Positions 31,501 through 54,276 of a stretch of DNA of 64,000 nucleotides are shown piece after piece; the stretch's first letter is position 1; each line of letters starts with the position of its first letter. The notes below the pieces were generated by a model. It saw only the letters and a program-made list of their open reading frames with translations, was not told the DNA's origin and did not search any database. This DNA is from Candidatus Obscuribacteraceae bacterium (GTDB lineage Bacteria; Cyanobacteriota; Vampirovibrionia; Obscuribacterales; Obscuribacteraceae). The stretch covers positions 320,001-384,000 of the forward strand of contig JBGAHS010000006.1 in assembly GCA_044226015.1 (NCBI GenBank). Direction: 5' to 3'. Made by a program: the position numbers and the translations under genes.

Positions 31501-34500
31501 CGAGCTTGCCAATCCATTAAACAACCACCCCGTTCCAGACAGAACGACACCATCAGCCACATTGATTGCAGCGGAACCAACTGCGTTGTTGTTTTGAACA
31601 GTTAGCGGTCCACCTTGAGCCGATATATTGGAATTGAGGTTGATTGTACCCGAACTCGTATTCGAGTTGAGAATCGTTATCGCACCATTGAATGACAAAA
31701 TGTTGCTAACGCCGAAGCTGCCACCGTTCGTCAGATTGCCGGTCAGGTAAACATCTCCGCCAGCATTTATGCTTGCAAAATCAGCGTTAGCACTCGGATT
31801 CGAACCTGAATTGGTGATGTTTATGTAGACATTACCGGCTCCGCCAATCGGGGAAGCATTTGTTGTAACAGTAAGACTTCCAGCAGTTGAACCATTTGGC
31901 ACCAGGTCAACATTAAAGCTTGAACCTGATGGGGTGTAGACATTGCTAGAGTTGGCAGTTCTACTGAGGAAACCAATATTGCCAGTCATGCTCATCAACG
32001 AGACACTATTAGCACTAACCAAGCCAATCGCTGTTTGCTGCAAACTACCTGCTGAATTTATGTTCACTGAACTGGTTGCAGTGCCAGCACCTACGACACC
32101 GTTCAAGGTAATTGAGTCAGCACTGTTGAAGCCAGTTATCGTATTCAGATTGACGGTTTCTGCCTTCAATCCACCGTTTATAGCCAAGGAACCAACGTTT
32201 ACGATGGTTATCATATTGGTGGAAACAGTAGTGGTATTGCTTACAACCAGATTTCCAAAATTGGAAATGCTGACACTAGAGCTGCCATTGGTTGTCAGAT
32301 TCAAAAGAGCGGTCTGAGTAGATATAGGTCCGTTACTGGTTCCATCGACACCCAAAGAGAGAAGCAATTTGTTCGGTGCGTAAATTGTTGCGTTCAAACC
32401 AGTGGAGATAGCGCCACCAGTAGCAGTGCCACCAGAAGCATCAAGAGTAATGGTTGGGGCATAAACAGAACCATCTATCTTCAAGTTTCCGGTTCCACTT
32501 CCATTTGCAGAAAGTGATAGAGGACCGCTTGAAACAACAGTCATGCTCTGCCCGACAGGTCCGCTAGGTGCAATCGTCAGATCGCCATTGCTAACCCCAA
32601 TATTCATTGTTGCAGTAGTTGAACCTGTCAAAGTAGCAGAAATAACCGTCAAATCATTCTGACTTGAGATATTTACATTACCACCAGTGCTAACAACACT
32701 GAGGTTCTGAACATTCACATCAAGTCCCGTGGGACCCGTTCCGCCAGTTCCAACCTTGACGTTGAGCGTTCCGGTTTGTATGTCAGTGGTACCAGCTTGA
32801 GTTATTGGGTTCGCGCCAGCAACAACGAGAGTTATGGAACCGCTGCTGTCGCCAGAGGTCAAACCACCCGGGATGTTGATGCCCGCTGGCGAGCTGACAA
32901 GAATACTTCCAGAGGTTAAATTCCCAGGAGAACCCGCCACCGACATATTTAGTGGTGTCGAACGTCCAATATTGAGCGCTTGAGCAGCCGTTGTCGTTGT
33001 CTGGGTTATGAAAATCGAACCACCTATTCCCGTGTCGCCGCTATTCGTAGAGGCATTCGCCGTGATCGTCAGCGGGAATGTAGTAGTCATATTTACTTGT
33101 TTGGCGTTGATGGTGACAGAACCACCATTCGAACCTGTTCCTGCTGTGACGTTCGTTGCAGAAGCACTCAGATTGCCAGATGCTGTGGCGGTGATTATGC
33201 CAGTTGGAGCCTCAAGGTCGATATTACCTCCATTACCTGCAGGCAACGCGCTGTTTACAGAACTAGCACCGCCTGCTGACGAGACGGAAATGAGCGCGGG
33301 GTCAAATTGAATACCACCAGTGCCCAGGTTCTTTATACCTATTGAACCACCATTGTTACCAGCAGCCACCAGTCCGCCACCACCGGTTCCTACACCATTG
33401 CCGTTAGCTGCAGCGTTTCCTACATTGAATGGTGTCGTGCTGTTGGTGACGATAGAAATGATGCCACCATTTCCGATGCCGTCACCAGCAGGGAACGTAG
33501 CACTGCTGTCTTGAGCGGGTCCACCGGACGCGCTCAAACCGCCACTTTGGGCATTTCCTGAAATAAATACTTTTCCGTTAGTTCCGGTTGCCGATAGGTA
33601 AATAGCACCACCATTGCCACCATTTACAATCAATGTGTTAGCAGTACCGTTGCAACTTGCACAATTTCCGCCAGCTTGACCGGTAACGAAAATGCTGGTG
33701 GGCTGCGCAACAATGATGCCACCGGCTCCCTTGGCACTTATATTGACGACCCCACCATTAGAACCGTTAGCGAAGAGAGAGCCAGTGACGCCATTAGTGG
33801 TAGTTGCTCCGACAGTAAATGGCGTAGCGCTATTCGAAAGAATAGCGATTTGTCCACCAGCACCAGCTGACAAAAGGAAATTTCCAGACGAGTTAGACTG
33901 AAGCTGAGCACCACCATTGACACTTAAGCTGCCATTGACCAGTACATTGCCTTGTGCAGCCTGGAGAACAATCTGTCCGCCTGGCCCGCCTACATCTTGT
34001 CCATTTTTTGTTACGGACAAATTAGCGTCGTTTGCAGCAACACTAAGTCCGTTGCTAGCGACGTTAATTCCGCCCTTGCCGAGATTGTTTATGGTTATGG
34101 AACCACCAGCCCACCCGGCAGCGTTGATGACGCCACCAACTCCATTAACCAGGACGCCGAGCCCATTCACGGTGAAAGCACCTGTTGAATTTGAGGTGAG
34201 CGAGACTGAACCGCCCAGACCATCAGCGAACTGAGAGCTGTGAGAGGTTCCACCATTTACGTTAATTCCACCGCCAATAGCTAGGTTACCCTTCACTGCT
34301 TGCAGGCTCAATTGACCGCCGTTTCCAGCAGCTCCAAATGTTGAGGTTCCTGGTTGAAGCAAAATCGAACCATTGGTAGCCGAGATACCACCAGTACCTA
34401 AGTTAGTCACGGTGATAGTTCCAGCGTCACCATTGCCACCAACCCCAGAACCACCGTTGGATATCAGACTGCCCACGACACCATTCGTCACGCTAGGTCC

Positions 34501-37500
34501 GCTTGCTCCGATTTGAAAAGCACTCGTCGAATTAGTTGTAATGACGATGTTGCCACCAAAGCCACCAATTGATGGGTTAGACGTCGGATTTCCTACACCA
34601 TTGACACTGATGCTGCTTAGAACTCCAACAGGTCCATTCACGGCTAGCAAATTTACGTTACCACCGAAGCCACCAAAACCGATAAGTGTTGGTCCTATAA
34701 CGGAAGCAGGTGCAATCGGATTGCTGTTAATTGCGCTGGCAGCAACCTGAATACCACCTTTTCCGATGTTCGAGACAGTTATCGTACCTCCTGAGTATCC
34801 GGTTGCCGAAAGGGTTCCGACACTGTTGGATGCGCTGGACGGCGTACCGACAGCAAAAGGAGTTGCAGAGTTACTGTTGAGAACGATGGTTCCGCCATTG
34901 CCTGAAGTGAAGTAAGGTTGAACCGTTATGCTTGAAACATAAGAATTCACTACATTGAAGACTGTAAACTGAGTAGACGAGAGAACAGCACTGATTGCAA
35001 CGGCTTCGTTTTGCGGAGCGCTACTTCCATTAAGTCCAGCCAAACCAACTACTTGTCCTGCATACAGTCCTACGGTACTAGACACTGTGATGGTGGTACT
35101 AGCCACAGAACTTGCACTTATGGCAGTAGGAGCGCTTTCGGTGCCACCATTAGCACTAAGTCCTATAGCACTCTGAATCGCTCCGTTCGCCGTCAAGAGG
35201 ATATTGCCACCATCACCGCCGATAGTGCCCAACAAGGATGAAGCATTAGCAGCAGCAACTGAAACGACTGCTGTAGAGCCAATCGTGATGCCACCACCCT
35301 GGTTAATCACTTTTATGGTACCACCAGAGCCGGTTGGCAATGTTGAGTAAATCAATCCACTTGGGCTGCCACCACCAGACACATTTCCATTAGCTGTCAG
35401 ATTTCCTTTCACGCCGTTAAACGTAGCGCTTAGAACAGCATTCGGGTCAATTACAAAGGGTGTTGTGCTATTAGTTGTAATTTGTATGAGTCCGCCATCG
35501 CCACTTCCGCGAGCGACAGAAGAACTGCCGCCGCTAGCATCGATATTGCCGGTGCTCTGAACAATTTTTCCTTCTAAGAAAATCTGTCCGCCTGACCCAC
35601 CAACATAAGATAAGTTAGCCGTACCAAGCAGACCGCTTGTAGCGTCGGCACCCTGAACCTGAAGGGCACCACCTTGAACGATAATGCCACCAGTTCCAGT
35701 GTTCTTAACCGAAATAGTTCCACCGCTACCATAGCTCTGAGTTGTACCAAGATTACCGTTGGCCGTAAGGAGTCCGTTACCAGATACACCGTTTCCTCCA
35801 ACCGTCGCCTGACCGATGTTGAAAGCTTGTGAGCTGTTCATTACGATATTGATGCTACCGCCGTTACCACCTGGAAGACCACTGGCACCGGAAAGCGTGC
35901 TTGGGGCACCATCAGCATTCAAGGTTCCGGCGATCGATACTGTGGAACCAGCAGTAAGGTTAATGTTCGCACCCCTACCATCTGCATACTGAGTTCCAAA
36001 TCCGCTATCTGCAAGGTTGTTAACACTAGGAGCCATAGTGATGGCAGCAGGGGTGACATTGATGCCGAGTGCTGCTTTCACATTCAGCGTTCCGCCATTT
36101 CCACCAACGGTATCTGATGGAGCATTTATGGTGAAGCTGTTTGCAGCATTGTTGATATTAACAGCCCCTGCACTGGTTGATGTCGTAGTGATGTTGATTG
36201 TTCCGCCATCACCACCAGTAGCATCAAGTGGACCACTGCCATTGTAGGGGGAGTAGCCACTGAGACCACTTGCACTGACAGGTATAGCACCGGCTGAGGC
36301 GAAGGAAGCAGCTCTGATGTTTATGGTACCGCCGTTAACACCATAACCTGCTGTCGAATTAGCAGACTGCGCATCAGAAGAAACGCTTGCGCTATTTAAG
36401 AAGGTCATCAAACCACCGCTTTCCAAATTCGTAATGGACGATGGAATCATTCCTGGAGATCCACCAGCGGGAAGTGTGTTATTGGCATTACTGATGTTGC
36501 TGTTAAGGTTCAGAGCACCTCCGGCTCTGACTGTGATTGTAGTCGTCGCTGTTGTAGCATTTCCAGTCGTCGGTGGAACCTGGAAGTACCCACCAGCAGC
36601 GTTCATCTTTCCTACAGTCGCACCTGCGTTCAACAAATTCGCTGAGGGACCAAGCGAGCCGGTGCTCGTCAACGCACTTGAGGTCGCCGTTGTATTGTAC
36701 GTAAGAACAAACGGAGCGCTTGCGTTTGTTAACGGAGTGGAAGTCACTACCGTAATATTGCCGCCACCCTGATTACCACCACGGGTATCGATGCCACCCG
36801 ATACGCTTGCTAAATTGATTGTAGTCGGTGCAGACGCTGCAGAGCCCTTGCTTCCGCCAGCAACAATAACAACATCACCATTCAGGTTGCTGCTCGAACT
36901 CACATTCAGGCTACCAGAAGCAGTACCACCAGTGCTGATCGCCACATCGGGCATACTGAGTTGCCCAGTCGTAGACGGATTAGAGCTTGAGGCAAACGCA
37001 GTTATTGAAACATTTCCACCAGCAGCACCGATGTTTCCGTTAACCGGTCCACCATTGGCGGTTATATTGTTCAATGTTGGCAAGTTGATATTGCCACCTG
37101 TTGAAGAAGAACCAACCACACGAATAGTTGTCTCAATTTTATCGTTCAGCCCGCCACTCAGGTAAGTGTGCTTTCCAGTGACAGTATAACTAGCACCCGC
37201 GGTCATTATGATCGGAGACGCGGTGAACTGCTTAGCTTGACCGCTGCTTGTAATGCTGAAATTACTCAGAGTTGAGCTTTGTATGTTGTTTCCAGCAACA
37301 AGGGTCACAACTCCACCAGGTCCTAATGGACTAATAGTGTTAAAGCCACCGGTAGAGATTGAACCATTCAGATTAATGTTCTTACCAGCAAGAATTGTCA
37401 CTGGCGACGTTTCAACAGCAATATTGCCGAGTTTTCCAGCAGAGCCAACATTGATGGAGCCATTATTGATTGTAGAAAACGAAATACTGTCGCCGTTGGT

Positions 37501-39252
37501 GATATTGCCGTTGGTGATGCTTATTGGTGCCTCGATTTTCGGAGTGGCAGTCACGAGATACACGCTACCGGCGAGTCCGCCGCCACCAGAAGATGTGTTA
37601 ATACCACCAACAGTTATGACAGAACCACCGGTGGGGTCACTCTTAGCTCCGGCAATAATTGTTACTGAACCATTATTCAGTCCTACACCGCCACCGTTTG
37701 TGTTAATCGCAACACTTCCCAGATTCACTGTTCCTGGAGTAAATGAGCTTCCTTTGCCTGTACCGGCGAATGCAGTAATGCTGACGTTTCCACCATTAGC
37801 AGTTCCAACCGTAGAAATTGGGTTGCTGAAAGCGCTGAAATCAACCGCCCCACCTGTAACACTAGGACCGAGGATCGTGAAAACAGAGCTAATATCACCA
37901 TTTCCCTGGGTGCTTGTTGATGAGCTTCCAGTGGCACTCGAAGAAACCGTGAAATTGGCACCAGACATGACGAAAAGAGGAAAGCCGGTGGCTCCATCTA
38001 GCGTATTGATTGAACCAGCATTGGTACCAATAATGTCGCCAGAAGCAAGCAACGCAACAGGTGCACCTTGAATGACCGTTCCACCGGAGATAGCACTGTT
38101 GACACTCAAACTACCATTCGTATTGAAAAATACGGGGTCTTCAGTAAAGGTCATGTTGCCCAAATTGAAGGTTCCACTGTTGACACCTGCGTGAATATTG
38201 CTGGCAGTGATGTTTACCTGTCCAGTAGCGGAATGCGTGTTCATTTCCACATTACCGTTACCGCCAAAAATATTGACGTTGTTCGATAGCAAATCACCAC
38301 CCATTAAGGTGGTGTTGTACTTACCAGAGAAAAGCGAATCGCGCACATTTATGTCGGCCGCTAGGGCGGAAAGTACGCCATTAGTATTGTTGATGTTGAT
38401 CGAGCTTGGCAAAGCAGACAAGACATTGAGGTTGCCTGCAATTGTGGTTAACGCACCACTGTTCACTATGTTGCTGGAGACGAGATTTAGTCCATTGGCA
38501 GCGGTAATCACACCAGCATTAGCGAGACCTGCGTGTCCAATGTTTGAAATGGTGTTACCAGCAGTGAAAGTGAGGCTGTTGGCTCCAGTTATCTGACCAT
38601 AGTTAGTGATACTGCCTGCAGCGATGAGGTTTAACGCAGTGGCACTGCTAATAAGAGCACCATAGTTATTCACAATGTTGGCAGCGCTAATCGTTGCACC
38701 ACCAATGAGATTGCTTATTCTTAAAGCACCTGAATTGGTCAAATCTCCGAGAATGTTCAGATTCGAAACACTGCTGAAGGAGGTAACGCCTTTTGGAATT
38801 ACGAGGCTGCTTATATCGAAGTTAAATTTCGGACTAAGGCTGAACGAACCACCAATAGCATTACCATTCATACCAAGTCTGATCGTCTGAGCTCCGGTGG
38901 AGATTACTTGCCAAACAGCGAGACGTTCGGCAGGAGTTAGAAGCGATTGCGCATCAATTACTCTGCTGCCAGTGCCACTACGAATACTGATATTGTTGTC
39001 ACCAAGATTGACGGGCGCTTGCAGAGTGCGGTTGGTAGAAGACAAGTCGAAGTTGAGTGTCGAAGCGTGAGCACCGTGCGTCATAGGTGTCGCACCCGGA
39101 CGAGACTGTGCCATGACAACCTGCGTCGACGACAGTCCCAAATTCAATGACACCGCCAGTAGTGTAACTGCAGATAGTGTCTTTTTCGCAGTATTGCCCT
39201 GTACATGAGAATTCCAAGCAGAAGCAAACGGCTTCTCGCGATTCGAAAGCAT
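28555..39252 (-). CDS. 3565-aa filamentous-haemagglutinin-like beta-helical surface protein with a C-terminal FecR-like domain
   Basis: Extended signal peptide and GAGGA RBS. G/N/S/T-rich beta-helix repeats (GGxGGxIxI). C-terminal FTLKTGSMF..VIHTDLADVHAKKGSLFSV..VAVCSG..LTAGEEVVI resembles FecR. Confidence 0.88.
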   Translation of the reverse strand: MLSNREKPFASAWNSHVQGNTAKKTLSAVTLLAVSLNLGLSSTQVVMAQSRPGATPMTHGAHASTLNFDLSSTNRTLQAPVNLGDNNISIRSGTGSRVIDAQSLLTPAERLAVWQVISTGAQTIRLGMNGNAIGGSFSLSPKFNFDISSLVIPKGVTSFSSVSNLNILGDLTNSGALRISNLIGGATISAANIVNNYGALISSATALNLIAAGSITNYGQITGANSLTFTAGNTISNIGHAGLANAGVITAANGLNLVSSNIVNSGALTTIAGNLNVLSALPSSININNTNGVLSALAADINVRDSLFSGKYNTTLMGGDLLSNNVNIFGGNGNVEMNTHSATGQVNITASNIHAGVNSGTFNLGNMTFTEDPVFFNTNGSLSVNSAISGGTVIQGAPVALLASGDIIGTNAGSINTLDGATGFPLFVMSGANFTVSSSATGSSSTSTQGNGDISSVFTILGPSVTGGAVDFSAFSNPISTVGTANGGNVSITAFAGTGKGSSFTPGTVNLGSVAINTNGGGVGLNNGSVTIIAGAKSDPTGGSVITVGGINTSSGGGGLAGSVYLVTATPKIEAPISITNGNITNGDSISFSTINNGSINVGSAGKLGNIAVETSPVTILAGKNINLNGSISTGGFNTISPLGPGGVVTLVAGNNIQSSTLSNFSITSSGQAKQFTASPIIMTAGASYTVTGKHTYLSGGLNDKIETTIRVVGSSSTGGNINLPTLNNITANGGPVNGNIGAAGGNVSITAFASSSNPSTTGQLSMPDVAISTGGTASGSLNVSSSSNLNGDVVIVAGGSKGSAASAPTTINLASVSGGIDTRGGNQGGGNITVVTSTPLTNASAPFVLTYNTTATSSALTSTGSLGPSANLLNAGATVGKMNAAGGYFQVPPTTGNATTATTTITVRAGGALNLNSNISNANNTLPAGGSPGMIPSSITNLESGGLMTFLNSASVSSDAQSANSTAGYGVNGGTINIRAASFASAGAIPVSASGLSGYSPYNGSGPLDATGGDGGTINITTTSTSAGAVNINNAANSFTINAPSDTVGGNGGTLNVKAALGINVTPAAITMAPSVNNLADSGFGTQYADGRGANINLTAGSTVSIAGTLNADGAPSTLSGASGLPGGNGGSINIVMNSSQAFNIGQATVGGNGVSGNGLLTANGNLGTTQSYGSGGTISVKNTGTGGIIVQGGALQVQGADATSGLLGTANLSYVGGSGGQIFLEGKIVQSTGNIDASGGSSSVARGSGDGGLIQITTNSTTPFVIDPNAVLSATFNGVKGNLTANGNVSGGGSPSGLIYSTLPTGSGGTIKVINQGGGITIGSTAVVSVAAANASSLLGTIGGDGGNILLTANGAIQSAIGLSANGGTESAPTAISASSVASTTITVSSTVGLYAGQVVGLAGLNGSSAPQNEAVAISAVLSSTQFTVFNVVNSYVSSITVQPYFTSGNGGTIVLNSNSATPFAVGTPSSASNSVGTLSATGYSGGTITVSNIGKGGIQVAASAINSNPIAPASVIGPTLIGFGGFGGNVNLLAVNGPVGVLSSISVNGVGNPTSNPSIGGFGGNIVITTNSTSAFQIGASGPSVTNGVVGSLISNGGSGVGGNGDAGTITVTNLGTGGISATNGSILLQPGTSTFGAAGNGGQLSLQAVKGNLAIGGGINVNGGTSHSSQFADGLGGSVSLTSNSTGAFTVNGLGVLVNGVGGVINAAGWAGGSITINNLGKGGINVASNGLSVAANDANLSVTKNGQDVGGPGGQIVLQAAQGNVLVNGSLSVNGGAQLQSNSSGNFLLSAGAGGQIAILSNSATPFTVGATTTNGVTGSLFANGSNGGVVNISAKGAGGIIVAQPTSIFVTGQAGGNCASCNGTANTLIVNGGNGGAIYLSATGTNGKVFISGNAQSGGLSASGGPAQDSSATFPAGDGIGNGGIISIVTNSTTPFNVGNAAANGNGVGTGGGGLVAAGNNGGSIGIKNLGTGGIQFDPALISVSSAGGASSVNSALPAGNGGNIDLEAPTGIITATASGNLSASATNVTAGTGSNGGSVTINAKQVNMTTTFPLTITANASTNSGDTGIGGSIFITQTTTTAAQALNIGRSTPLNMSVAGSPGNLTSGSILVSSPAGINIPGGLTSGDSSGSITLVVAGANPITQAGTTDIQTGTLNVKVGTGGTGPTGLDVNVQNLSVVSTGGNVNISSQNDLTVISATLTGSTTATMNIGVSNGDLTIAPSGPVGQSMTVVSSGPLSLSANGSGTGNLKIDGSVYAPTITLDASGGTATGGAISTGLNATIYAPNKLLLSLGVDGTSNGPISTQTALLNLTTNGSSSVSISNFGNLVVSNTTTVSTNMITIVNVGSLAINGGLKAETVNLNTITGFNSADSITLNGVVGAGTATSSVNINSAGSLQQTAIGLVSANSVSLMSMTGNIGFLSRTANSSNVYTPSGSSFNVDLVPNGSTAGSLTVTTNASPIGGAGNVYINITNSGSNPSANADFASINAGGDVYLTGNLTNGGSFGVSNILSFNGAITILNSNTSSGTINLNSNISAQGGPLTVQNNNAVGSAAINVADGVVLSGTGWLFNGLASSNSVNTQAGVALISGAFPSTPVVGSQPSNVTPSGDNSNFYYGLGANVGSADLNASSTASSTSIVLQGASANSINIGNGVVVNSTSSILNISSLDLTNAGIRNALIALQGNPSSGVSGKLSGTGTGTLNFDTTTASVPFSLANLNAMNIPSGLTLTFANFGAANPVSVNAPTTGTSKINGTINFQAVNGISTGSPTPNAFVTDAHMFFNTSVVGQVLNIASSGVISSDNNLGIYIGGSSTIAGKLSAGSFGTLGIHAGQATLATTSPTSTTVSAGTITMTKASLSAGTIGDGGVVRVFAPNVTGSGSSITANESSLWVTAGVNYQLKGVTPTLVKSGELTAFSSFTTGTTSIFTTVGVNTKIAAVSTSNINNLMLIAAGPVSITQTNPLTVAGIVLNDLSIASDKITVAPVSGFVFNMSDLGANNISFTTKELLNTAGTIYSNNSQTKVNVFATTGQALKVTMTDGINSGTVFGGNGLTITSAAGLTINGGNFTANTGLIAINESKTGMSINGATFTAGTLNGLPVAPVLTPNEIQSRGDIKITVGPGGLSTTDAATFISNGGSVSIVSTGALNLSGNYTANGGNISILNSNKVTSTTDFFANAAAVGTVATNAVGGIIEITAGTNLSQINNLSTVPGTLPTDPLFVQPEGGPPLPLGSNVAINNNASGSVNYGTGSVLQNVTAGATYNLGNSATTQSVMNLFGGGMVFSVGSGASLTMQGADLTVNSLTPISFKDRNHSTLDLEFNGDDDESGATAHVFAPGYNESLLLTGKGINSLEESGSAKLTARKAASQFTLKTGSMFMNPICDTVIHTDLADVHAKKGSLFSVSTEEGGLRVAVCSGPGHVSLHVGESEITLTAGEEVVISDHKLSEAEQGKADGIGRRHFSNYKLSANRHVSICEISLSSVIGNWSGLSASSTENNHVAKQISGKMLKTAAALHVVTQSHGAYQSRARKSEHNKRQVLVPVNYSSDSRTRLRASAE

Positions 39253-42678: not shown

Positions 42679-42964
42679 GGCTGCCAATTTCTTACTTGTG
42701 ATTTCAAGAAATAAATTGCATCCGCTTTTGGACCTGAGAAATAGCTTATCCTCGCATTAACAAACATCTATTGCATCTCGCTTACGGGCAATTTACATGA
42801 GCGACACTACCAACAAGAGGATACTATTTCGCACCCAACAGATATACGATCCAAACAATGATTCTGAATCAAAATGTTCGGATGCCTGACAATTCGTTTC
42901 TAATTTTTATCGATGCATTTTAGCCATATTTTGCTATCGATTTAATATCGAGAAAATACTTTCT

Positions 42965-43216
42965 GGGGGAGTGTACAGAGATACATCGCACTGCTAAAGT
43001 ATTTGCATGTTCGGTGAGCGATTGAAAAAGCAATCGCGTTGAGCCGAGGGGCAATGCGGAAACAGCAGGAATGCGCATTCCGGGAACAGCAGCAGAAAGC
43101 CCGTTTTACGTGAAGGATTGGCTGAAGCGTAGAAAGATATTGAGCCTCCCGCAAGAGGCAGCCAAGCAATAGCAATAATACCGCTGCGATTTAGTTCGAG
43201 CGGTATTTTTGTTTTT
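42965..43216 (+). ncRNA. Candidate structured ncRNA, copy 1 (family not recognised)
   Basis: Intergenic and homologous to 48067-48322 (minus strand). Kink-turn hairpin at 43010-43047, several stems, a pseudoknot-capable UUGGCU/AGCCAA pair, and a terminator. Confidence 0.75.
43177..43216 (+). terminator. Intrinsic terminator of ncRNA copy 1
   Basis: AATACCGCT-N13-AGCGGTATT followed by TTTGTTTTT. Confidence 0.85.
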
Positions 43217-43346
43217 GCCAGCACTATTTCCGGTCCATCTGCCTGTATCGAAAGTTCATTGCTTCACTCGACCGTTCATTCAACTCGTGTGATAATGCTT
43301 TCGCGCCATTCCATCAACCGTGAGCGCTTTATCTCAGGTGAACACA

Positions 43347-44066
43347 ATGGAAAAGAACGATAAAGCTGGATCTGATCGTGAGATAAAAAACGAAGCAAAG
43401 GCTCCGCCACCGAATAACCGTCCGACTGAAGCCAAGCCTCTTAATCGATTGCACAAAACGATGAAGATCGCCCTTATCATAAGTATGGTAATCGATTCAC
43501 TTTCTACATTCGTCATCACTGCAGCAAGCTTTCTGCCACCAATAGACGCCATTACTGAGAACACGCCATTACACATCATTCTTGTGCATATCGCAGTAAG
43601 TACACTCAGCTTCTGCCAAATCGGACTGGTTCTGGTTATAGGTTTTTCTTTGATTCAATGGATGTATCGATGCTACAGAAATCTGGAACTTATTGATCAA
43701 AAAGGACTTACAACTACAAGCAATTGGACGATTATCTGCTGGTTTATCCCATTATTGAATTGGGTGCGACCGTTTTTCATTATGAAGGAGATTTACTTCG
43801 GAACTGCGTCCGATGGGCGAAGCCTAAACATGGCGCAGAAAGCTCCGTTTTACATTAGTCTCTGGTGGACATGCTGGGTCACTCAAGGAATTATGGGACG
43901 AACATCGCAGATCATTCTAAACAGAGACCCAAGCAATATTTTGATCAACGTCCTATCAATCGGTTCGAACTTGTTCGAGATAGGAGCAGCTGTATTTCTC
44001 CTGCGAGTCATCAAAGAAATAACTGAGCTACAAAACCATAGAATTCCATCTATTCAATCGGTTTAG
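43347..44066 (+). CDS. DUF4328-family membrane protein
   Basis: QWMYRCYRNL, W..ICWFIPLLNWVRPFFIMKEI and LWWTCW are DUF4328-like motifs with about 4 TM helices. ATG 43347 has an AGGTG RBS (the track starts at 43320). Confidence 0.8.
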   Translation: MEKNDKAGSDREIKNEAKAPPPNNRPTEAKPLNRLHKTMKIALIISMVIDSLSTFVITAASFLPPIDAITENTPLHIILVHIAVSTLSFCQIGLVLVIGFSLIQWMYRCYRNLELIDQKGLTTTSNWTIICWFIPLLNWVRPFFIMKEIYFGTASDGRSLNMAQKAPFYISLWWTCWVTQGIMGRTSQIILNRDPSNILINVLSIGSNLFEIGAAVFLLRVIKEITELQNHRIPSIQSV

Positions 44067-44099
44067 TTGATACTCGCAAGAACTTGCTGATTGACGATT

Positions 44100-45440
44100 C
44101 TATCTCGTTTTGTCAGCATCTCTTGTAGCAAGCGACTTGGCCTTCATGAGAGCTGCGTACTTCTTTTGAATTTCGGGAATTGCTTTGCGAGCTGCTATCT
44201 CACCAGCATGAATTGCCTTGCGCGCATCATCGGGGTTGGCAGTCATGACTGGCAGTCCGCTAACGTCAGGGTTGATTACAACATCTGCAAACGGCAACTG
44301 GCGCGCGTCTGCAATTGCTAAAACAATATCTCCCATGCGCTCTGCAATTCCACCAATATGCCTAAATTTCTTCGCTGGCACAGATTTTAGTGGTTCGTCA
44401 ACAAGAACTGCAATAACCAGGTCTGCCCCCGTATCCTTAGCGGCTGATGCTGGAAGGTTAGCTCTGACGCCACCATCAATGAATACCTTGTTGTCGATCG
44501 CTACAGGCTGCAGAAGTGGAGGAATGGTGGAGCTTGCTCTTATCGCAGTCGACAACTTTCCATTACTTATTCTGTAAGCCTTACCATCGATCAGATTCGT
44601 AGCTACAGCTGAAAATGGTATTGGCGTATCCTCAACATTAACTACATTAGGTGGCAATTGAGACTCTAGGAACTCAGAGAATTTTTTTCCGGTCCAGAGC
44701 CCAGCGTAATGCTTCTTAAATGGGTGCATCAATTTAGCCAGTGGACTAATAAGAATTTTCGGTGGAATGCCACCTGGCTGGTAAGAACTTCGCAGAGAGT
44801 CATCCAACATCATGGTTTGAATTTTGTCCAACGGAACGCCAGCCGAATACAACCCGCCAATGATGCTTCCCATGCTGTTTCCAACGATGTAATCAATTGG
44901 AATACCGGCTTCTTTCAAAGCACGCAAGATGCCTATGTGGGCAGTTCCGCGAGCACCACCACCACCAAGCGCTAAAGCGACTGAAGGACGATGAGAAATT
45001 TTAGGACACTTCGCGCTTGCATCATCCTCGCTTTTGATGTGAGTTGCCTCACTGGCCACTCTATTTTTGTCATTTTGATTAACCAAGACCTTGCCGCTAG
45101 TTTTAGGATCTTTCGAATCTTCGGCTTCGGCTCCAAGATCTTGCTTCAGCTGTTCTTCTGCAACTTCTTCTGTCTCTTTGCTCTTATTATTAAAATCAGG
45201 GAACTCATCGATCGCATGTGTGTCGTGTGAACGATCCATATTGAATTTGTCTTTTCCAGAATTCGATTTGTCTGCGCTAGACAAATCACTCTTCTTTACA
45301 GATTCATCAGAACCCGCAACTTTGTCAAATTTTGCCTCGGCTATTGCTGCGTTATCAACTGAGTAACCGTCGCTTAATGACGCCTGTGGATAGCCGATTA
45401 GCAAAAATAGGGATGAGGCAAGTATTACAGACTTTCTCAT
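44100..45440 (-). CDS. Patatin-like phospholipase (RssA/NTE family), exported
   Basis: LALGGGGARG, GNSMG (GxSxG) and DGG motifs, plus a signal peptide. Confidence 0.93.
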   Translation of the reverse strand: MRKSVILASSLFLLIGYPQASLSDGYSVDNAAIAEAKFDKVAGSDESVKKSDLSSADKSNSGKDKFNMDRSHDTHAIDEFPDFNNKSKETEEVAEEQLKQDLGAEAEDSKDPKTSGKVLVNQNDKNRVASEATHIKSEDDASAKCPKISHRPSVALALGGGGARGTAHIGILRALKEAGIPIDYIVGNSMGSIIGGLYSAGVPLDKIQTMMLDDSLRSSYQPGGIPPKILISPLAKLMHPFKKHYAGLWTGKKFSEFLESQLPPNVVNVEDTPIPFSAVATNLIDGKAYRISNGKLSTAIRASSTIPPLLQPVAIDNKVFIDGGVRANLPASAAKDTGADLVIAVLVDEPLKSVPAKKFRHIGGIAERMGDIVLAIADARQLPFADVVINPDVSGLPVMTANPDDARKAIHAGEIAARKAIPEIQKKYAALMKAKSLATRDADKTR

Positions 45441-45562
45441 GAGAAACTCCCCCGGAGGACAAATGTCGTGGCGTATATCGAGTCCAAAAGTTCCTTGCGA
45501 TTTTGCTTTCGGTTTACAATTAAATTGTCTTGCAGTAAAGACTCGCCTTTCAGGTCCAAATA

Positions 45563-46225
45563 ATGAAGAAAAAGAACTCTAGCGTTGGAACCACAACACA
45601 AACTACTTCAAAGTCAGACAACCCGACGAGAAAAAAAACAGCACAGTCTCAATCTGGCAAAACGAACGCAATATCAAATTCTAAAAAGATTGAGAATAGC
45701 GAAGAGAAAAAGACCACAACCAAAGAGCGGAACATTCCAAAGAAGGTAGAAGCAAATTCTCTGGCTGATTACTTTGAGGTTATGAGCATTGCGGTATTTC
45801 AAGCCAGCGTGAGTTGGGCTCTGATACTCAATAAACTTGATAATTTTAGAAAAGCTTTCAACAATTTCGACCCTAACCTAGTAGCAAAATACGACGAGAT
45901 AAAGATAAGTTCCTTGATGGAAGATAGCAGTATTTTGCGAAACGAGAAAAAGATCAGAGCAACAGTCACGAATGCTGCCTGCATGCTGGAACTAACAAAG
46001 CAACATGGAAGTTTTGCTAACTACCTGCATTCGTTCAAGGACTACCTTACATTAGCAAAAGACATGAAAAAGCGCTTCAAGTTTTTTGGAGATTTGAGTG
46101 TCTATTATTTCCTTTTTCGCGTAAACGAACCTGTTCCAGACTTTGATGAATGGATTGAGACAATTCCAGGTGAGCATCCTCGAATGAGAGAGATGGTCGA
46201 CCAATACAGGATACCCCCTGGCTAA
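45563..46225 (+). CDS. tag: DNA-3-methyladenine glycosylase I (Tag)-like protein with Lys-rich N-terminal extension
   Basis: FQASVSWALILNK..FRKAFNNFDP..VA..ILRNEKKIRATVTNA..MKKRFKFFG. Confidence 0.8.
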   Translation: MKKKNSSVGTTTQTTSKSDNPTRKKTAQSQSGKTNAISNSKKIENSEEKKTTTKERNIPKKVEANSLADYFEVMSIAVFQASVSWALILNKLDNFRKAFNNFDPNLVAKYDEIKISSLMEDSSILRNEKKIRATVTNAACMLELTKQHGSFANYLHSFKDYLTLAKDMKKRFKFFGDLSVYYFLFRVNEPVPDFDEWIETIPGEHPRMREMVDQYRIPPG

Positions 46226-46238
46226 TTCGAATCTGTTG

Positions 46239-46272
46239 AAGTCAGGCTGGCAAGTCAGGCTGGCAAGTCAGG
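46239..46272. repeat. Short 13-bp tandem repeat (AAGTCAGGCTGGC x2.6) between convergent genes
   Basis: Read directly from the sequence. Confidence 0.7.
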
Positions 46273-47875
46273 GCGAAATTGATTGCAGTTTTTTTCTAAC
46301 TAGTGGATCTTCTTTTATCTTGAGCGCTTCACGGAGTTCAACCGTTGCACCAATTTTATCGCCACTAGAAAGAAGTTTATCGGCATTAGCTACCCTTTGC
46401 GCAAAATTCTGTGGGTCGATACCACTTTGTTTAAGCCGCGACGCAAGATTTGAATGCGCAGCATTATTATCAGGGCTCCAGTATAATGCAAGACGAAGCA
46501 ACTCCACAGCTTTCGCATCGCTCACACCATCTGCAATGGCAAGATTATTGGCGGCTGCAGATATGTTACCCCTGGCTAAATTGCTTTTGGGATCAAGCTG
46601 CAAGGATTTTTTTAACGTGTCAATGGCTTTTTCATAGTCACCAGCCATTGTGTACTTGGAGCCAAGATTGGCAAGATACTGAGCCTTCACAGTTGGACTG
46701 AGAGTCCTACCATATTCATCTTTTTCTGGAATCTTATCCACAACAGAGTTATCGTCAGAATACAACAAGAGAACAGTGTTGATATCTCTATCGGAGAGTC
46801 CATGCTGCACATATAAGGACGGCGCCATAATATCGTCTGGATAAGGACTGTGTCCTTGAAGTCCTAGAGAGTGCCCTATTTCATGAAGGCAAACATTGTA
46901 GAGGTAGTTTCTTGCAATGGGCCCCTCTTTGAACGGGTCGACTGTCAGAAGCAAGATTTCTGCTGTACCCAGTCCATCGGCACCATAGGTGGTTTTGGCG
47001 AGCCCGGCTTCCGCCTTTAGTGCAGGCGCATGGAGGTCACTGGTCCATGTTACCGTCATTTGCGCATTAGCTGGATCATTGACAAAGAGAAAACCAATTT
47101 TTCCGTCAGTCAGTGTATTCCAATCATCGAACGCTTGTCGAAGCGATTCTTCAAACTCGGGTCTGTATCCTTCAACTGAACTACCATCTTTTATAAAAAC
47201 TCGGATTTTATCAGCATTCTTCCACTTTGCGAGTGCACCACTGGAGATGGCAGCCAGATAGTCACCAGCAATTGTCCTGCTCTTGCTGCGTTTATTTGAC
47301 TTATAGTTCTCTTCGTCTTTGAGGACACTGATTAATAGCTTGTATTGACTAACATCTGCTGCTTCTGGAGACTTCGCCAGATATTGCTCATAGAACTTGA
47401 TTGCTTCTGCTGGCTTGTGAATCGATTGAGAAATTTTTCCCATGAGTAACAACAACTCAGTATCATCAGGTTTTGCCGCAAGAACTTCACTTGCCTCGCC
47501 AGCCGCATAGTGAAATCTTCCGAGTTGATATAGGACGTCCGCATGCATTTTGCGAGCAGGTAAATTGCCAGGCTCTTGCAAAAGCTGTTTAGCTAGTGCC
47601 AGTTCGCAGGGCTCTAGTTGACCCTGCCTGAGCAATTCACGGGCAGCAGCAAGGCTCTTATCGACCTCTGCCGACTTATTTTTTTCCTTTGTCTTTGCGC
47701 TCTCACAAAGTAATACTGGGATCTTGCGGCCTTCTTTGCGACTGACAACTAAAGCATCGTTATTAGTCGAGCCCATCTTGTTGACTTTGGGCTCGTCCAA
47801 ATTTGCTGCGAATAATGAACCGCAGCAAGCATATCCAGCCAGCGCAACGAGCATCAGTGAGAAAACTTTCGTCAT
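46268..47875 (-). CDS. Exported TPR + matrixin-family (M10-like) zinc metallopeptidase
   Basis: HEIGHSLGLQGHS plus Met-turn DIM, with TPRs on both sides. Signal peptide from ATG 47875 with a GAGG RBS (the track starts at 47908). Confidence 0.9.
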   Translation of the reverse strand: MTKVFSLMLVALAGYACCGSLFAANLDEPKVNKMGSTNNDALVVSRKEGRKIPVLLCESAKTKEKNKSAEVDKSLAAARELLRQGQLEPCELALAKQLLQEPGNLPARKMHADVLYQLGRFHYAAGEASEVLAAKPDDTELLLLMGKISQSIHKPAEAIKFYEQYLAKSPEAADVSQYKLLISVLKDEENYKSNKRSKSRTIAGDYLAAISSGALAKWKNADKIRVFIKDGSSVEGYRPEFEESLRQAFDDWNTLTDGKIGFLFVNDPANAQMTVTWTSDLHAPALKAEAGLAKTTYGADGLGTAEILLLTVDPFKEGPIARNYLYNVCLHEIGHSLGLQGHSPYPDDIMAPSLYVQHGLSDRDINTVLLLYSDDNSVVDKIPEKDEYGRTLSPTVKAQYLANLGSKYTMAGDYEKAIDTLKKSLQLDPKSNLARGNISAAANNLAIADGVSDAKAVELLRLALYWSPDNNAAHSNLASRLKQSGIDPQNFAQRVANADKLLSSGDKIGATVELREALKIKEDPLVRKKLQSISP

Positions 47876-48066
47876 AGCGCGCACCTCTGCCTGAATTCTA
47901 CCCTGCATGATCGGTCAAATCACTCAAGATTCAGCGAAATCACATCGCTTTCCAGCAGGCGAGAGGGTATCGCTTTCCTGTAGGCAAGGTGCTATCCCTT
48001 TTCCCTGCAGGTCCGGCGCAGGCTAGAAAATCCAGGAAGATTGAACAGTCCCAAAACTGAAAAATG

Positions 48067-48109
48067 AACAAACAAAAACACCATCCGAACTAAATCGCGA
48101 TGGTGTTTT
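48067..48109 (-). terminator. Intrinsic terminator of ncRNA copy 2
   Basis: On the minus strand: AAAACACCATC-N13-GATGGTGTTTT followed by TGTTTGTT. Confidence 0.85.
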
Positions 48110-48322
48110 AGCTATTGCTTGGCTGCCTCTTGCGGGAGGCTCAATATCTCTCTACGCTTCAGCCAATCCGTCACGTAAAGCGGGCTCTGCTGCTGGTGTT
48201 TCCGGGATGCGCACCCCTGATGTTTCCACATCGCCCCTCGGCTCGTAGCGATTGCTTCATTCAATCGCTCACCGAATATGCATACTACTTTAGCGGCTTC
48301 AATCGCACTTGTACACTACCCC
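48067..48322 (-). ncRNA. Candidate structured ncRNA, copy 2 (family not recognised)
   Basis: Inverted, diverged homolog of 42965-43216 with compensatory base changes in stems. Ends in a terminator. Confidence 0.75.
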
Positions 48323-48585
48323 AATGAAGAAGACCGAGAGATAAAATCACCTGCAGCAAACGACACTATTGTGTCAAAAAATATTAGACAAAAATTGTCA
48401 GGCACTCGAACTAGCAGCCCCCTATACCGGACGAATATCGTATATACAACATACATATAAGGCATTTCTAAGTGCAATCCAGGGGAAGCCTATACGCTGC
48501 TAATTCGATACACATTCGATAACTAGAACGCCTTTCTTAAAAAGATCAAAAATTCTTTTCCTGCTCTGATACTCTCAGTGCAGCT

Positions 48586-48672
48586 CCGAGCCGAGCCGAG
48601 CCGAGCCGAGCAAACCAAGCCGAGCCGAGCAAACCAAGCCGAGCCGAGCAAACCAAGCCAAGCCAAGCCAAG
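48586..48672. repeat. Pentanucleotide/19-bp simple sequence repeat (CCGAG)n/(CCAAG)n
   Basis: CCGAG x3, then CCGAGCCGAGCAAACCAAG x3 (48601-48657), then CCAAG x3. Confidence 0.9.
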
Positions 48673-48676
48673 ACTG

Positions 48677-49390
48677 ATGAATCTCAAAGCCACAATTCCC
48701 AAAGCCGCTCGTCTTTTAGGCACTATTGCGATTTCACTGCTGATGATTGCTAGCGCTGGAGTGCTCATTCTTAACCTGTGCCCTAAACCACTATTGGGTC
48801 TTCCGGAGAGTACATGGCAATTGCGAAAGTCCGATGCAATTATCGTGTTAGGCACACCCACAAAAAAGGATGGAAAAGCCACTCCGAGTTTGAGAGAACG
48901 GGTGCGCACCGGGGTTGATCTCTACAAGCGAGGAATGGCAACAAAGCTCATAGTTACAGGAGCCGCAGCACACAACAAGTTTGTAGAAGCAGATGTCATG
49001 GCAGCGGATGCTGAATTAATGGGCGTGCCAGCCGATAAAATAATTCGGGAGCGTGAAGCGAAAAACACCTATCAAAATGCTTTCGATTCCTATCTAATAA
49101 TGAAAGCAGAAGGAATGAAATCCGCGATAGTTGTGTCATCGCCCGCGCATTTGTTGCGTGCAAATTTAATTTTCTCACGCTACCCAATCGAATATTGTGT
49201 GTTCGGGTGCGATTACCCTGCTGAACAAAATGCATGGGACAGACTCATCTTCGACCAGAGAGAGAAGTATTTTGTTCTTGCGGACCTGATTCTCAATAAA
49301 GGTATTCTTCTGGGGTTGAAACCAGAACAGGCACAACAGATGCCACAGATTGCAAAAGAAGCAGAGCTGATGCACTCCCAATCAAAGTAA
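48677..49390 (+). CDS. YdcF/DUF218 (ElyC/SanA-like) family protein
   Basis: N-terminal TM, then DAIIVLG, LIVTGA, EADVM, E..AKNTYQNA and VSSPAHLLRA. ATG 48677 is preferred over GTG 48578, which reads through the repeat. Confidence 0.9.
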   Translation: MNLKATIPKAARLLGTIAISLLMIASAGVLILNLCPKPLLGLPESTWQLRKSDAIIVLGTPTKKDGKATPSLRERVRTGVDLYKRGMATKLIVTGAAAHNKFVEADVMAADAELMGVPADKIIREREAKNTYQNAFDSYLIMKAEGMKSAIVVSSPAHLLRANLIFSRYPIEYCVFGCDYPAEQNAWDRLIFDQREKYFVLADLILNKGILLGLKPEQAQQMPQIAKEAELMHSQSK

Positions 49391-51813: not shown

Positions 51814-54276
51814 CTACCGCCTTGCTCTCACTCTTCCGGCACCGGCTCTGCCAGCGCGACTGTGAGATTTTTTATTAGCAGGGCGGCTGGCACCTGCATG
51901 TGCGGATTTCGCAACATTTGAATGCCCTTGCTTTCGACCGTAACCTGATTTGCCAACAGCGCTTTTTCCATAAGAACGTCCCGCAGAGCCATGAGCTGCC
52001 TTAGAACCACTGCTTCTGCCTTCTGAGCGCCCTTCCGAACCGTAGCCAGATTTGGCACCATAACTTCTGCCTTCTGCGCGTCCTTCCGAACCGTAGCCAG
52101 ATTTAGCACCATAGCTTCTGCCTTCTGAGCGTCCTTCCGAACCGTAGCCAGATTTAGCACCATAGCTTCTGCCTTCTGAGCGTCCTTCTGAACCGTAGCC
52201 AGATTTCGCACCATAGCTTCTGCCTTCTGAGCGTCCTTCTGAACCGTAGCCAGATTTGGCACCATAGCTTCTGCCTTCTGAGCGCCCTTCTGAAGCGTAG
52301 CCAGATTTAGCACCATAGCTTCTGCCTTCTGAGCGCCCTTCCGAACCGTAGCCAGATTTGGCACCATAGTTTCTGCCTTCTGAGCGTCCTTCTGAACCGT
52401 AGCCAGATTTGGCACCATAGCTTCTGCCTTCTGCGCGTCCTTCTGAACCGTAGCCAGATTTGGCACCATAGCTTCTGCCTTCTGCGCGTCCTTCTGAACC
52501 GTAGCCAGATTTGGCACCATAGCCTCTGCCTTCTGCGCGTCCTTCTGAACCATAGCCAGATTTGGCACCATAGGCGCTACGATTTTCTTGAGATCTTCCG
52601 CCAGAACCATATGTGGACTTTTGCCCGTTGCTTCTTGCACGGTCTTCAGACCCGTTGCTGTACTTTGAACGAACGCTTTGCTTTTCCTGCGAACGCTTGC
52701 CGAAGCCGTCGGAAGAATAGTTTTGTTGATCTATAGAATCGCCATAACCATCAGAGTTTGACTTCCCAACAGAACCATCTCTGTAGACTGCAGACTGTCT
52801 TCCTTTGTTATCTGAACCATAACCTGCAGAACGGCTGCGATCATTCCTGCCGTATTCAGATGCTGCAGAATGCCTAGAAGAGGAATTGGAGCGGCTTGAA
52901 CCATAAGCCTTTCGACCTTTATGTTCATGTTTTAATTTCGAAGAGTCATTGCCAGAAAATTCCGTTTCGTTACCATCGGATGACTCTGAGTCGTTAAAAT
53001 AACGCTTAGCAAATCTGTTACGTCCGAACTGAGCTTCGCGGCCAAAGTCAGAGCGAGAGCCCGATTGAGCCTTCGCTAGAGGTTTTCTGTAAGCATCTTC
53101 TTTAGGCTGATATTCTTCTTGAATCTCAACAACTTTGCGAGCAGAACGAATTTCAACGACTTCTCGTTTTCCATTTCCATTCTTCAAAACATCAAATATA
53201 GCTTTGACAAGATGACGCTGATCGTTGGAAACAAATGAATGCGCAAAACCAGCGCGTCCAGCTCTGCCAGTACGTCCGATGCGATGGACATAATCTTCGG
53301 CAAGCATAGGCAAATCAAAATTGACCACGTGACTTATAGATGGAATGTCGAGCCCACGCGCAGCAACATCAGTAGCAATGAGGATGCAAAACTCTCCGTC
53401 TCTAAATCTCTTAATAGTGTAAGAGCGTTGCTTTTGGCTTATATCACCGTGAATCTCTTCTGCCGGAATTTCCAGCTCACGGAGGGCAGCTGTAAGTTGT
53501 GACGCCTTACGCTTCGTCTTTGTGAAAACAAGCATAGAGTCTACTGATACATCGCCAATCAGCTCAACAAGCCTTTTTTGCTTTTCCTTCTCTTTAATGT
53601 AGTGGAATTGCTGATCAATCGACGCTGCTTCAACCTTGTCATTGTTCACCTGAATAACTTCCGGCGATTGCAAGAATTCCTCGGCAAGATCCTTAATACG
53701 ATTGTCTATGGTGGCAGAAAACATGAGCGTTTGGCGCACTTTAGGAACCCGAGCCATAACAGCTCTGACTTGCGGCATGAAACCCATGTCTAGCAGTCGG
53801 TCTGCTTCATCGAGTACAACATGTTCAACTACATTTAAGTTCGCGTAGTTGCGATTCACACAATCAACAAGTCGACCTGGTGTGGCAACAATCACGTCAA
53901 CACCACGATGTAGCGCTTGAATTTGCTTCCTGTAGCCGACCCCACCAAACAAGGTGATAAGTTTCAAGCCAAAAGGCTTGCCAAATCGTTCGAATTCCGT
54001 CGCGACTTGTGTTGCCAACTCTCTAGTTGGAACGACAACGAGCGCTCTGGTCTTAACTTTTTCACCAGCTTTGGTGCTTTGTGACAATTTGGCGATTAGC
54101 GGAAGAGCATATGCCGCCGTTTTACCAGAGCCAGTCTGCGCTGAAGCTATCAGGTCCTCGCCAGCACTGACGGTTCCAATAGCTTTGACTTGAATTTCCG
54201 TCGGCTCAACAAATCCAATCGCATTTAGATGACTAACCATTTCACTGGAAAGTCCAAGTTCACAGAATGACACCAC
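51814..54276 (-). CDS. DEAD-box RNA helicase (RhlE-like) with very long G/S/R/Y-rich C-terminal tail
   Basis: Q motif, AQTGSGKT, PTRELA, TPGRL, DEAD, SAT, ARGLD and HRIGRTGR. Confidence 0.96.
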   Translation of the reverse strand: MVSFCELGLSSEMVSHLNAIGFVEPTEIQVKAIGTVSAGEDLIASAQTGSGKTAAYALPLIAKLSQSTKAGEKVKTRALVVVPTRELATQVATEFERFGKPFGLKLITLFGGVGYRKQIQALHRGVDVIVATPGRLVDCVNRNYANLNVVEHVVLDEADRLLDMGFMPQVRAVMARVPKVRQTLMFSATIDNRIKDLAEEFLQSPEVIQVNNDKVEAASIDQQFHYIKEKEKQKRLVELIGDVSVDSMLVFTKTKRKASQLTAALRELEIPAEEIHGDISQKQRSYTIKRFRDGEFCILIATDVAARGLDIPSISHVVNFDLPMLAEDYVHRIGRTGRAGRAGFAHSFVSNDQRHLVKAIFDVLKNGNGKREVVEIRSARKVVEIQEEYQPKEDAYRKPLAKAQSGSRSDFGREAQFGRNRFAKRYFNDSESSDGNETEFSGNDSSKLKHEHKGRKAYGSSRSNSSSRHSAASEYGRNDRSRSAGYGSDNKGRQSAVYRDGSVGKSNSDGYGDSIDQQNYSSDGFGKRSQEKQSVRSKYSNGSEDRARSNGQKSTYGSGGRSQENRSAYGAKSGYGSEGRAEGRGYGAKSGYGSEGRAEGRSYGAKSGYGSEGRAEGRSYGAKSGYGSEGRSEGRNYGAKSGYGSEGRSEGRSYGAKSGYASEGRSEGRSYGAKSGYGSEGRSEGRSYGAKSGYGSEGRSEGRSYGAKSGYGSEGRSEGRSYGAKSGYGSEGRAEGRSYGAKSGYGSEGRSEGRSSGSKAAHGSAGRSYGKSAVGKSGYGRKQGHSNVAKSAHAGASRPANKKSHSRAGRAGAGRVRARR
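52012..52572 (-). repeat. 11 x 51-nt coding tandem repeat (YGAKSGYGSEGR[S/A]EGRS) in the helicase tail
   Basis: Counted from the translation and checked against nucleotide coordinates (11 x 51 = 561 nt). Confidence 0.95.

Follow-up and report, generated by a model that had tools for sequence, protein, structure and literature searches.

The orphan RNA family poplar-1 in an Obscuribacteraceae genome: a probable stand-alone structured RNA with a palindromic tip and a predicted dimer

What is the intergenic element that occurs twice, on opposite strands, between positions 42,965 and 48,322 of a 64,000-nucleotide (nt) stretch of the genome of a Candidatus Obscuribacteraceae bacterium (GenBank assembly GCA_044226015.1, contig JBGAHS010000006.1, positions 320,001 to 384,000; the whole stretch is called the window here), and what might it do? 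A preliminary description of the window had taken the two copies for an unrecognised RNA of ~250 nt. Two intergenic homologs are indeed present at these positions, with 84% identity across 255 nt, but the family has a name: both copies match RF03041, poplar-1, over the whole Rfam model (positions 1-141), copy 1 at 43038-43176 (+) with 137.8 bits and copy 2 at 48108-48247 (-) with 136.8 bits, above the gathering cut-off of 110.5 bits. The preliminary description had proposed an Rfam check and had stated that a significant hit would remove novelty, and the idea of an unknown family is refuted because the match is significant; the Rfam scan of the window matched nothing besides these two copies. 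Poplar-1 is a known orphan Rfam family, its function unexplained, and it is a real RNA here; new for the family are its host, full length, promoter and predicted dimer. Taken as a whole, the reading towards which we lean is that poplar-1 is a stand-alone RNA of ~206 nt that homodimerises through the tip of its P2 arm and acts in trans as a dosage-tuned protein scaffold or sponge.

In Rfam the family is typed as 'Gene; sRNA' (small RNA), and its model of 141 positions begins inside the kink-turn and stops before the terminator. In the structure line as printed the pseudoknot is missing and the palindromic tip appears as a loop of 4 nt, while the P2, P4 and P5 stems of the model agree with the fold described here. 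The poplar-1 motif reportedly originates from Weinberg et al. 2017. The main text of PMC5737381 does not contain 'poplar', and some points on poplar-1 may stand in its supplement; the main text of the JAR3D Rfam paper has neither 'poplar' nor RF03041. The literature that we searched, which lacked most subscription papers, holds almost nothing on poplar-1 (one mention in passing) and gave no account of its host, promoter, ends, copy number or dimer. The accessible text of a drinking-water metatranscriptome preprint names poplar-1 among the small RNAs detected (10.1101/2025.10.18.683149).

Does the element behave as a folded RNA? In folding energy each of the two copies beats all 200 of its shuffles (z -3.0 and -3.7). 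Covariation was assessed on an alignment of 98 of the 102 copies that remained below 93% identity, from which 4 odd-length copies were excluded (163 distinct copies were collected overall). A structure of 60 pairs is paired in 95.7% of the alignment's cells and shows two-sided change in 47 of the 60 pairs, whereas slid registers pair at 31-37% only. None of 500 shuffles reached any measure of this structure, although relatedness among the copies inflates the test. All ten helices show covariation, and an unbiased mutual-information scan recovers most of them. The modules of copy 1, from the 5' end, are:

43012-43046 (+): 5' kink-turn hairpin, CGGU-GA facing the 3-nt bulge in GUU-GA-GCCG; mostly outside the Rfam model; 7 of 7 pairs of the canonical (C) stem and 1 of 4 pairs of the non-canonical (NC) stem covary.
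43049-43102 (+): P2 arm, whose internal loop is pseudo-symmetric, each strand carrying YRG-AAAC-NN-YAG.
43104-43171 (+): P4 and P5 hairpins with a loop-loop pseudoknot, in which 43118-43122 pairs with 43161-43165.

In a kink-turn, a 3-nt bulge and, after it, tandem G.A and A.G pairs separate two stems. Poplar-1 has exactly this sequence arrangement, with both G.A pairs present in 95 of the 98 copies, and the kinked geometry is predicted from it. The kink-turn of the preliminary description stands, as do its terminator stem and its UUUUACG/CGUAGAA, GGAAU/AUUCC and GGGC/GCCC helices. Two-sided change is seen in all seven P4 pairs, in all five pairs of the pseudoknot and in seven of the ten P5 pairs. 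The proposed UUGGC/GCCAA pseudoknot pairs as described; its UUGGCU loop, called invariant before, in fact covaries with its partner, and the pseudoknot is therefore strengthened. We discarded the GCUA/UAGC helix that had been thought to close the whole fold: it can pair in 44 of 94 copies, none through a compensatory change, it uses the promoter's -10 box, and its UAG pairs in P5 instead. A separate detail concerns the terminator, where a bulged G (43186; column 209 of alignment A2) is kept in 89 of the 98 copies with a covarying distal stem above it. Both exceed what termination needs, and they may be a protein or RNA contact.

A pointer to how the RNA might assemble lies at the tip of P2, in a covarying palindrome that the preliminary description had missed:

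43068-43081 (+): 14-nt perfect palindrome GGAAUGCGCAUUCC, with central GCGC at 43073-43076; here two molecules are predicted to dimerise.

The tip tetramer is self-complementary in 184 of 184 copies (GCGC 153, GCGU 15, ACGU 12 and GUAC 4), while control loops are self-complementary in 12 of 98, 20 of 97, 10 of 97 and 54 of 98. With G.U pairs counted, the palindrome extends to at least 12 nt in 83 of the 98 copies. Targeted searches of 107 genomes of the same order returned CG at the central two bases 216 times, UA six times and never a C with a base different from G after it; a metagenome scan for tip variants lacking the C yielded two GUAC and one AAUU, and no single mutants of the adjacent central bases were found. 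In a tree of 107 copies that was calculated with the tip left out and whose bootstrap had not settled, the inner tip pair changes five times, from CG to UA or AU, and at least four of these changes are forced by well-supported branches. GCGC and GUAC palindromes also co-occur in one genome. Adjacent bases cannot pair within one strand, and their coupled change therefore supports a dimer. Kretsch et al. report, in the part of the article accessible to us, that adjacent-base covariation backs the dimer bridge of OLE RNA seen by cryo-electron microscopy (PMC12286853). The poplar-1 tip has both marks of such a bridge, a self-complementary loop and adjacent-base covariation, and like OLE L9.3, which switches palindromic tetranucleotides at its symmetric kissing bridge (PMC12286853, same part), it exchanges one palindrome for another. 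RNAcofold favours the dimer by 19.9 kcal/mol with the pseudoknot ignored. From these sequence patterns we consider it quite likely that poplar-1 homodimerises through its P2 tip.

Where would the transcript begin and end? The features that bear on this are:

43007-43212 (+): poplar-1 RNA gene, copy 1; predicted full length ~206 nt, with an identical RNA-library contig over 43019-43164.
48072-48279 (-): poplar-1 RNA gene, copy 2; predicted full length ~208 nt, with identical RNA-library contigs over 48120-48195 and 48166-48266.
42965-43000 (+): predicted sigma70-type promoter of copy 1, GGGGGAG, a -35-like TGTACA (42972-42977), 17 nt and an extended -10 element TGC-TAAAGT (42995-43000).
48287-48322 (-): predicted promoter of copy 2, GGGGTAG, TGTACA (48315-48310), 17 nt and TAAAGT (48292-48287).
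42876-42892 (+): distal upstream DNA motif of copy 1, GNYCRRGYGCYTGDYAA, with a near-palindromic core, ~125 nt before the predicted +1.
48395-48411 (-): distal upstream motif of copy 2.
43178-43215 (+): intrinsic-terminator-like hairpin and U tract of copy 1, with the conserved bulged G; outside the Rfam model; 9 of 12 pairs covary.
48069-48106 (-): corresponding hairpin and U tract of copy 2, likewise terminator-like.

The length of ~250 nt given at first shrinks to ~206 nt because the first ~40 nt look like a promoter (TGTACA, 17 nt, TAAAGT). We infer a +1 for copy 1 near A43007 and termination at the 3' hairpin, near the U tract at 43212. For the promoter count 68 copies were collected, of which 67 were evaluable (one lacked an anchor). 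In 65 of the 67 the kink-turn is preceded, at 11-12 nt, by the end of a TAnnnT hexamer, versus 58 of 528 background windows; a G stands at -2 of this hexamer in 61, and in 60 GGG[GA][TG]A is found 29-30 nt upstream of it. The distal motif, present in 106 of 143 upstream regions and in most at a nearly fixed distance, is likely the binding site of a regulator. A simple promoter and terminator scan missed both promoters and both terminators. Nothing clear emerged for a wider regulon in this genome: the strict promoter pattern gave 7 matches, 4 of them RNA copies (the reversed control gave 13), and the distal motif gave 10 intergenic matches, 2 of them RNA copies. Two promoter-like sites elsewhere in the genome (contigs C1:180432 and C11:66288) share GGGGGA[CG]TTGACG with the RNA promoters and carry the near-palindrome AGACCGACCGGTCTA or something close to it, which resembles a TetR-family operator.

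Is the RNA made? Seven of the 24 listed RNA runs were compared, all as contigs. Contigs of run X1 are identical to copy 1 and to copy 2 over the intervals given above for the two genes, and contig cover in runs X1, X2, X8 and X12 lies within 43012-43184. In one X2 contig the adapter is followed directly by the base that corresponds to 43007, the predicted +1. The genes flanking the copies had no cover in four runs, which we count as no finding, and run X22 is probably DNA. In the peat run X3, contigs from relatives reach a summed depth of ~245,000, bearing in mind that contig depth measures expression poorly. Poplar-1 was seen in six RNA libraries, which come from different studies and habitats, and these together with the very high contig depth in peat hint at a major transcript of a widespread uncultured lineage.

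The preliminary description had counted two copies and had proposed searching the genome; the search gives five, four on contig C9 and one diverged copy on contig C10 (89.6 bits). In this fifth copy (L005 1460-1656) the P5b hairpin is missing and the pseudoknot differs in sequence but keeps its pairing; the copy is a natural minimal variant, useful for structure work. Among 60 relatives searched, Rfam matches to poplar-1 occur in 33 of 36 genomes of the same family and in 3 of 3 from the order's other family (36 of 39 Obscuribacterales genomes), and in 0 of 21 genomes from other orders. The number of copies per genome runs from 1 to 12 by Rfam search and reaches 13 in one genome by pattern search. 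A full-length covariance model built in this analysis (R1) recovered partial copies in one of the three Rfam-negative genomes and nine copies in another genome; in 150 other genomes of the phylum, from each of which only 15 candidates were scored, its sole match was weak (17.8 bits), and we take it as chance. Among the 80 named records listed, 52 are titled Obscuribacter, Obscuribacterales, Obscuribacteraceae or Melainabacteria, and of the other 28 titles 15 are further cyanobacterial names, 5 are unnamed bacteria and 8 belong to other phyla. In the tree the C9 copies of this genome group with copies from Ca. Obscuribacter records. From this distribution we infer that the host of poplar-1 is Obscuribacterales. 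Poplar-1 was found on one viral contig, from IMG/VR (L218 1-165), which bears an incomplete poplar-1 at its very beginning, broken off before the 3' pseudoknot strand; this is possibly an assembly chimera from an abundant RNA.

Could the element instead act in cis on the gene that follows it? The genes next downstream of the two copies lie outside the element:

43320-44066 (+): DUF4328 gene, downstream neighbour of copy 1.
46268-47908 (-): TPR and matrixin (M10) gene, downstream neighbour of copy 2.

Kink-turn, pseudoknot and terminator together form a riboswitch-like layout, comparable to that of the SAM-I and c-di-GMP-II riboswitches, and an orphan riboswitch or attenuator had been offered earlier as one option. 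From the 163 copies, 35 had too little downstream sequence, leaving 128 in which the next feature is a same-strand gene (66), an opposite-strand gene (43), another copy (18) or nothing (1). Thus 62 of the 128 lack a co-oriented gene next downstream, and the 66 co-oriented genes span 46 protein families. The largest presumably encode an M16 peptidase (9 copies) and a dUTPase (6 copies), and these two groups are the part of the context that a riboswitch would predict. The downstream genes being otherwise unrelated, a riboswitch is unlikely; no known aptamer class was matched, and the top 70 covarying column pairs contain no alternative terminator pairing. We regard cis-regulation of the next gene as highly improbable, the slightest of the readings considered here.

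A copy number of 1 to 13, arrays and non-syntenic loci within the genus would suit a selfish, mobile non-autonomous repeat akin to a miniature inverted-repeat transposable element (MITE), the RNA being incidental. No synteny around the copies was found with 7 genomes of the same genus. Such a repeat should, however, leave traces at its edges, and target-site duplications had been named beforehand as a sign of a MITE. Across the 98 copies, with unit ends assumed, direct and inverted repeats at the flanks do not exceed those of shuffled pairs in length, and we found neither terminal inverted repeats nor target-site duplications beyond those lengths. Moreover, the promoter and distal motif are kept at fixed spacing, tertiary pairs covary, and one array stems from tandem duplication together with a kinase gene. 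Gene context and the flanking-repeat result thus argue against both a riboswitch and a MITE, to the latter of which we give little credence, and the multi-copy, stand-alone structured RNA put forward in the preliminary description is supported. Also in its favour, the RNA is 77-96% identical within the genus while neighbouring genes yield just four short DNA matches of 68-73%.

Between the copies of poplar-1 arrays there is no gene or there are unrelated genes; in the array of genome G097, several units are duplications of the RNA plus a divergent protein-kinase-like gene. That array (L275 3363-12548 and L276 92-7623, G097:C8) holds nine same-strand copies, most alternating with divergent paralogous Ser/Thr-kinase-like genes, and adjoins M16 peptidase and dUTPase genes. 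It is a tandem expansion and may be the ancestral locus.

Multi-copy RNAs at unconserved loci are known from the same phylum, and a base-pairing regulatory sRNA family like cyanobacterial Yfr2, binding mRNAs or other sRNAs, has to be weighed. According to the accessible parts of the sources, Yfr2/Cyano-1 (RF01701) is likewise abundant, with a conserved upstream promoter motif and GAAAC in a loop (PMC1242208, PMC6778093, PMC6191309), and GAAAC is repeated in poplar-1. However, Cyano-1 is not matched in this genome, and poplar-1 has no RF01701 match. The 14 Cyano-1 matches from 32 positive genomes are ~70-nt single hairpins with a 5' GUGUGAGGAG, which poplar-1 lacks; YRG-AAAC-NN-YAG occurs in 0 of the 14, and only the GAAAC word is shared, so that homology to Yfr2 was rejected. 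The most conserved bases of poplar-1 also sit in helices or short loops. A Yfr2-like mode of action seems to us improbable, if a little less so than a mobile repeat.

Several abundant, structured housekeeping RNAs, namely 6S RNA, RNase P, SRP RNA and tmRNA, fall in a similar size class. A diverged RNase P, SRP RNA or tmRNA was rejected, each having a separate gene in this genome. Poplar-1 has no RF00013 match and is not a rod with a central bubble, and a replacement for a missing 6S RNA was rejected too: 24 of 39 genomes of the order have weak separate 6S matches, and this genome has a homolog. The latter is a diverged 6S candidate missed by Rfam (contig C6:800570-800755), 78% identical to a match from the same genus; nearly all 6S matches in this class lie under the gathering score (1 of 32 above it). 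The CUGA and GAAAC words resemble a hammerhead when judged by eye against its consensus; there is no stem II and no Rfam match, and this candidate was set aside.

What the RNA would do is best approached through the stand-alone structured RNAs of bacteria whose function is unclear, OLE, ROOL and GOLLD, which poplar-1 resembles in this respect (accessible parts of PMC12286853 and PMC12990946). It differs in being ~206 nt rather than ~550-830 nt long, in being multi-copy and confined to one order, in having no Rfam match to them, and in that its oligomer is only predicted. In the mechanism that we favour, each RNA would be transcribed from its own regulated promoter, terminate at the 3' hairpin and fold into a compact unit, the kink-turn and the P4/P5 kiss holding the monomer together. 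Two P2 tips would then pair end to end, through kissing loops or a strand-swapped duplex, and the joined P2 arms of the dimer would display four GAAAC loop strands. The dimer might serve as a protein-binding scaffold or sponge, its dose set by gene number. The protein-binding role is the weakest step; we propose it because the most invariant bases make up short, symmetric words in loops and no long pairing seed, and because gene context offers no ligand.

Several observations weigh against this proposal. L7Ae, CsrA (PF02599) and Ro60 (TROVE) were not found in this 92%-complete genome, and weak L7Ae-family matches in 7 of 107 genomes lie inside long open frames. The missing CsrA and Ro60 also led us to reject a CsrB/RsmZ-type sponge and a bacterial Y RNA. 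R1 found no copy in three genomes of the same family, from two genera (92, 86 and 66% complete), and the RNA may therefore be dispensable. The evidence from RNA runs consists of contigs, which give neither strand, ends nor level, and in an X14 contig 7 additional letters precede the predicted start, which they do not fit. As to the dimer, the cofold energy does not count as separate evidence, since every hairpin whose loop is complementary is itself palindromic; the adjacent-base signal rests on only five evolutionary events, four of them to the same UA, and preference for a stable two-base loop could partly explain the UA changes.

The absence of these three proteins fits a stand-alone RNA that works without protein, as an RNA-only oligomer, a ligand binder or a catalyst, and so do the dense invariant core and the tertiary motifs. 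In the accessible text of PMC12286853, kisses in ROOL and GOLLD that were first seen by covariation proved intermolecular. Against this, no ribozyme or riboswitch family was matched even at E values up to 10, and gene context suggests neither chemistry nor ligand; we judge this main rival unlikely, though well worth keeping in mind. A protein-free version with higher-order particles, in which the two-fold palindromic bridge and an intermolecular P4/P5 kiss would build rings or cages and incompatible palindromes (GCGC, GUAC) would sort paralogs apart, appears similarly doubtful. If true, this would make poplar-1 a natural oligomer of RNA alone, of very small size, and the first one encoded by a multigene family with a pairing code. 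Reports of natural RNA oligomers are rare, as far as the accessible text of PMC12990946 goes, and a small dimer or cage, if real, would be a new structural example. With its host, likely ends and covarying palindrome, poplar-1 makes a defined construct of ~206 nt for in vitro tests, for which the host need not be cultured.

Other features of the window were noted in passing. At 28555-39252 (-) lies a Gly/Ser/Thr-rich open reading frame (ORF) of 3565 amino acids (aa) that looks like a large adhesin or a filamentous secreted protein; a similar ORF of 4834 aa begins just after the C10 copy of poplar-1. A DEAD-box-helicase-like ORF at 51814-54276 (-) carries at its C-terminus a long tail made up of about ten repeats of 17 aa, GAKSGYGSEGRSEGRSY. 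Upstream of copy 2, a run of GCTCG/GCTTG pentamer repeats (48575-48680) coincides with the start of a DUF218 ORF.

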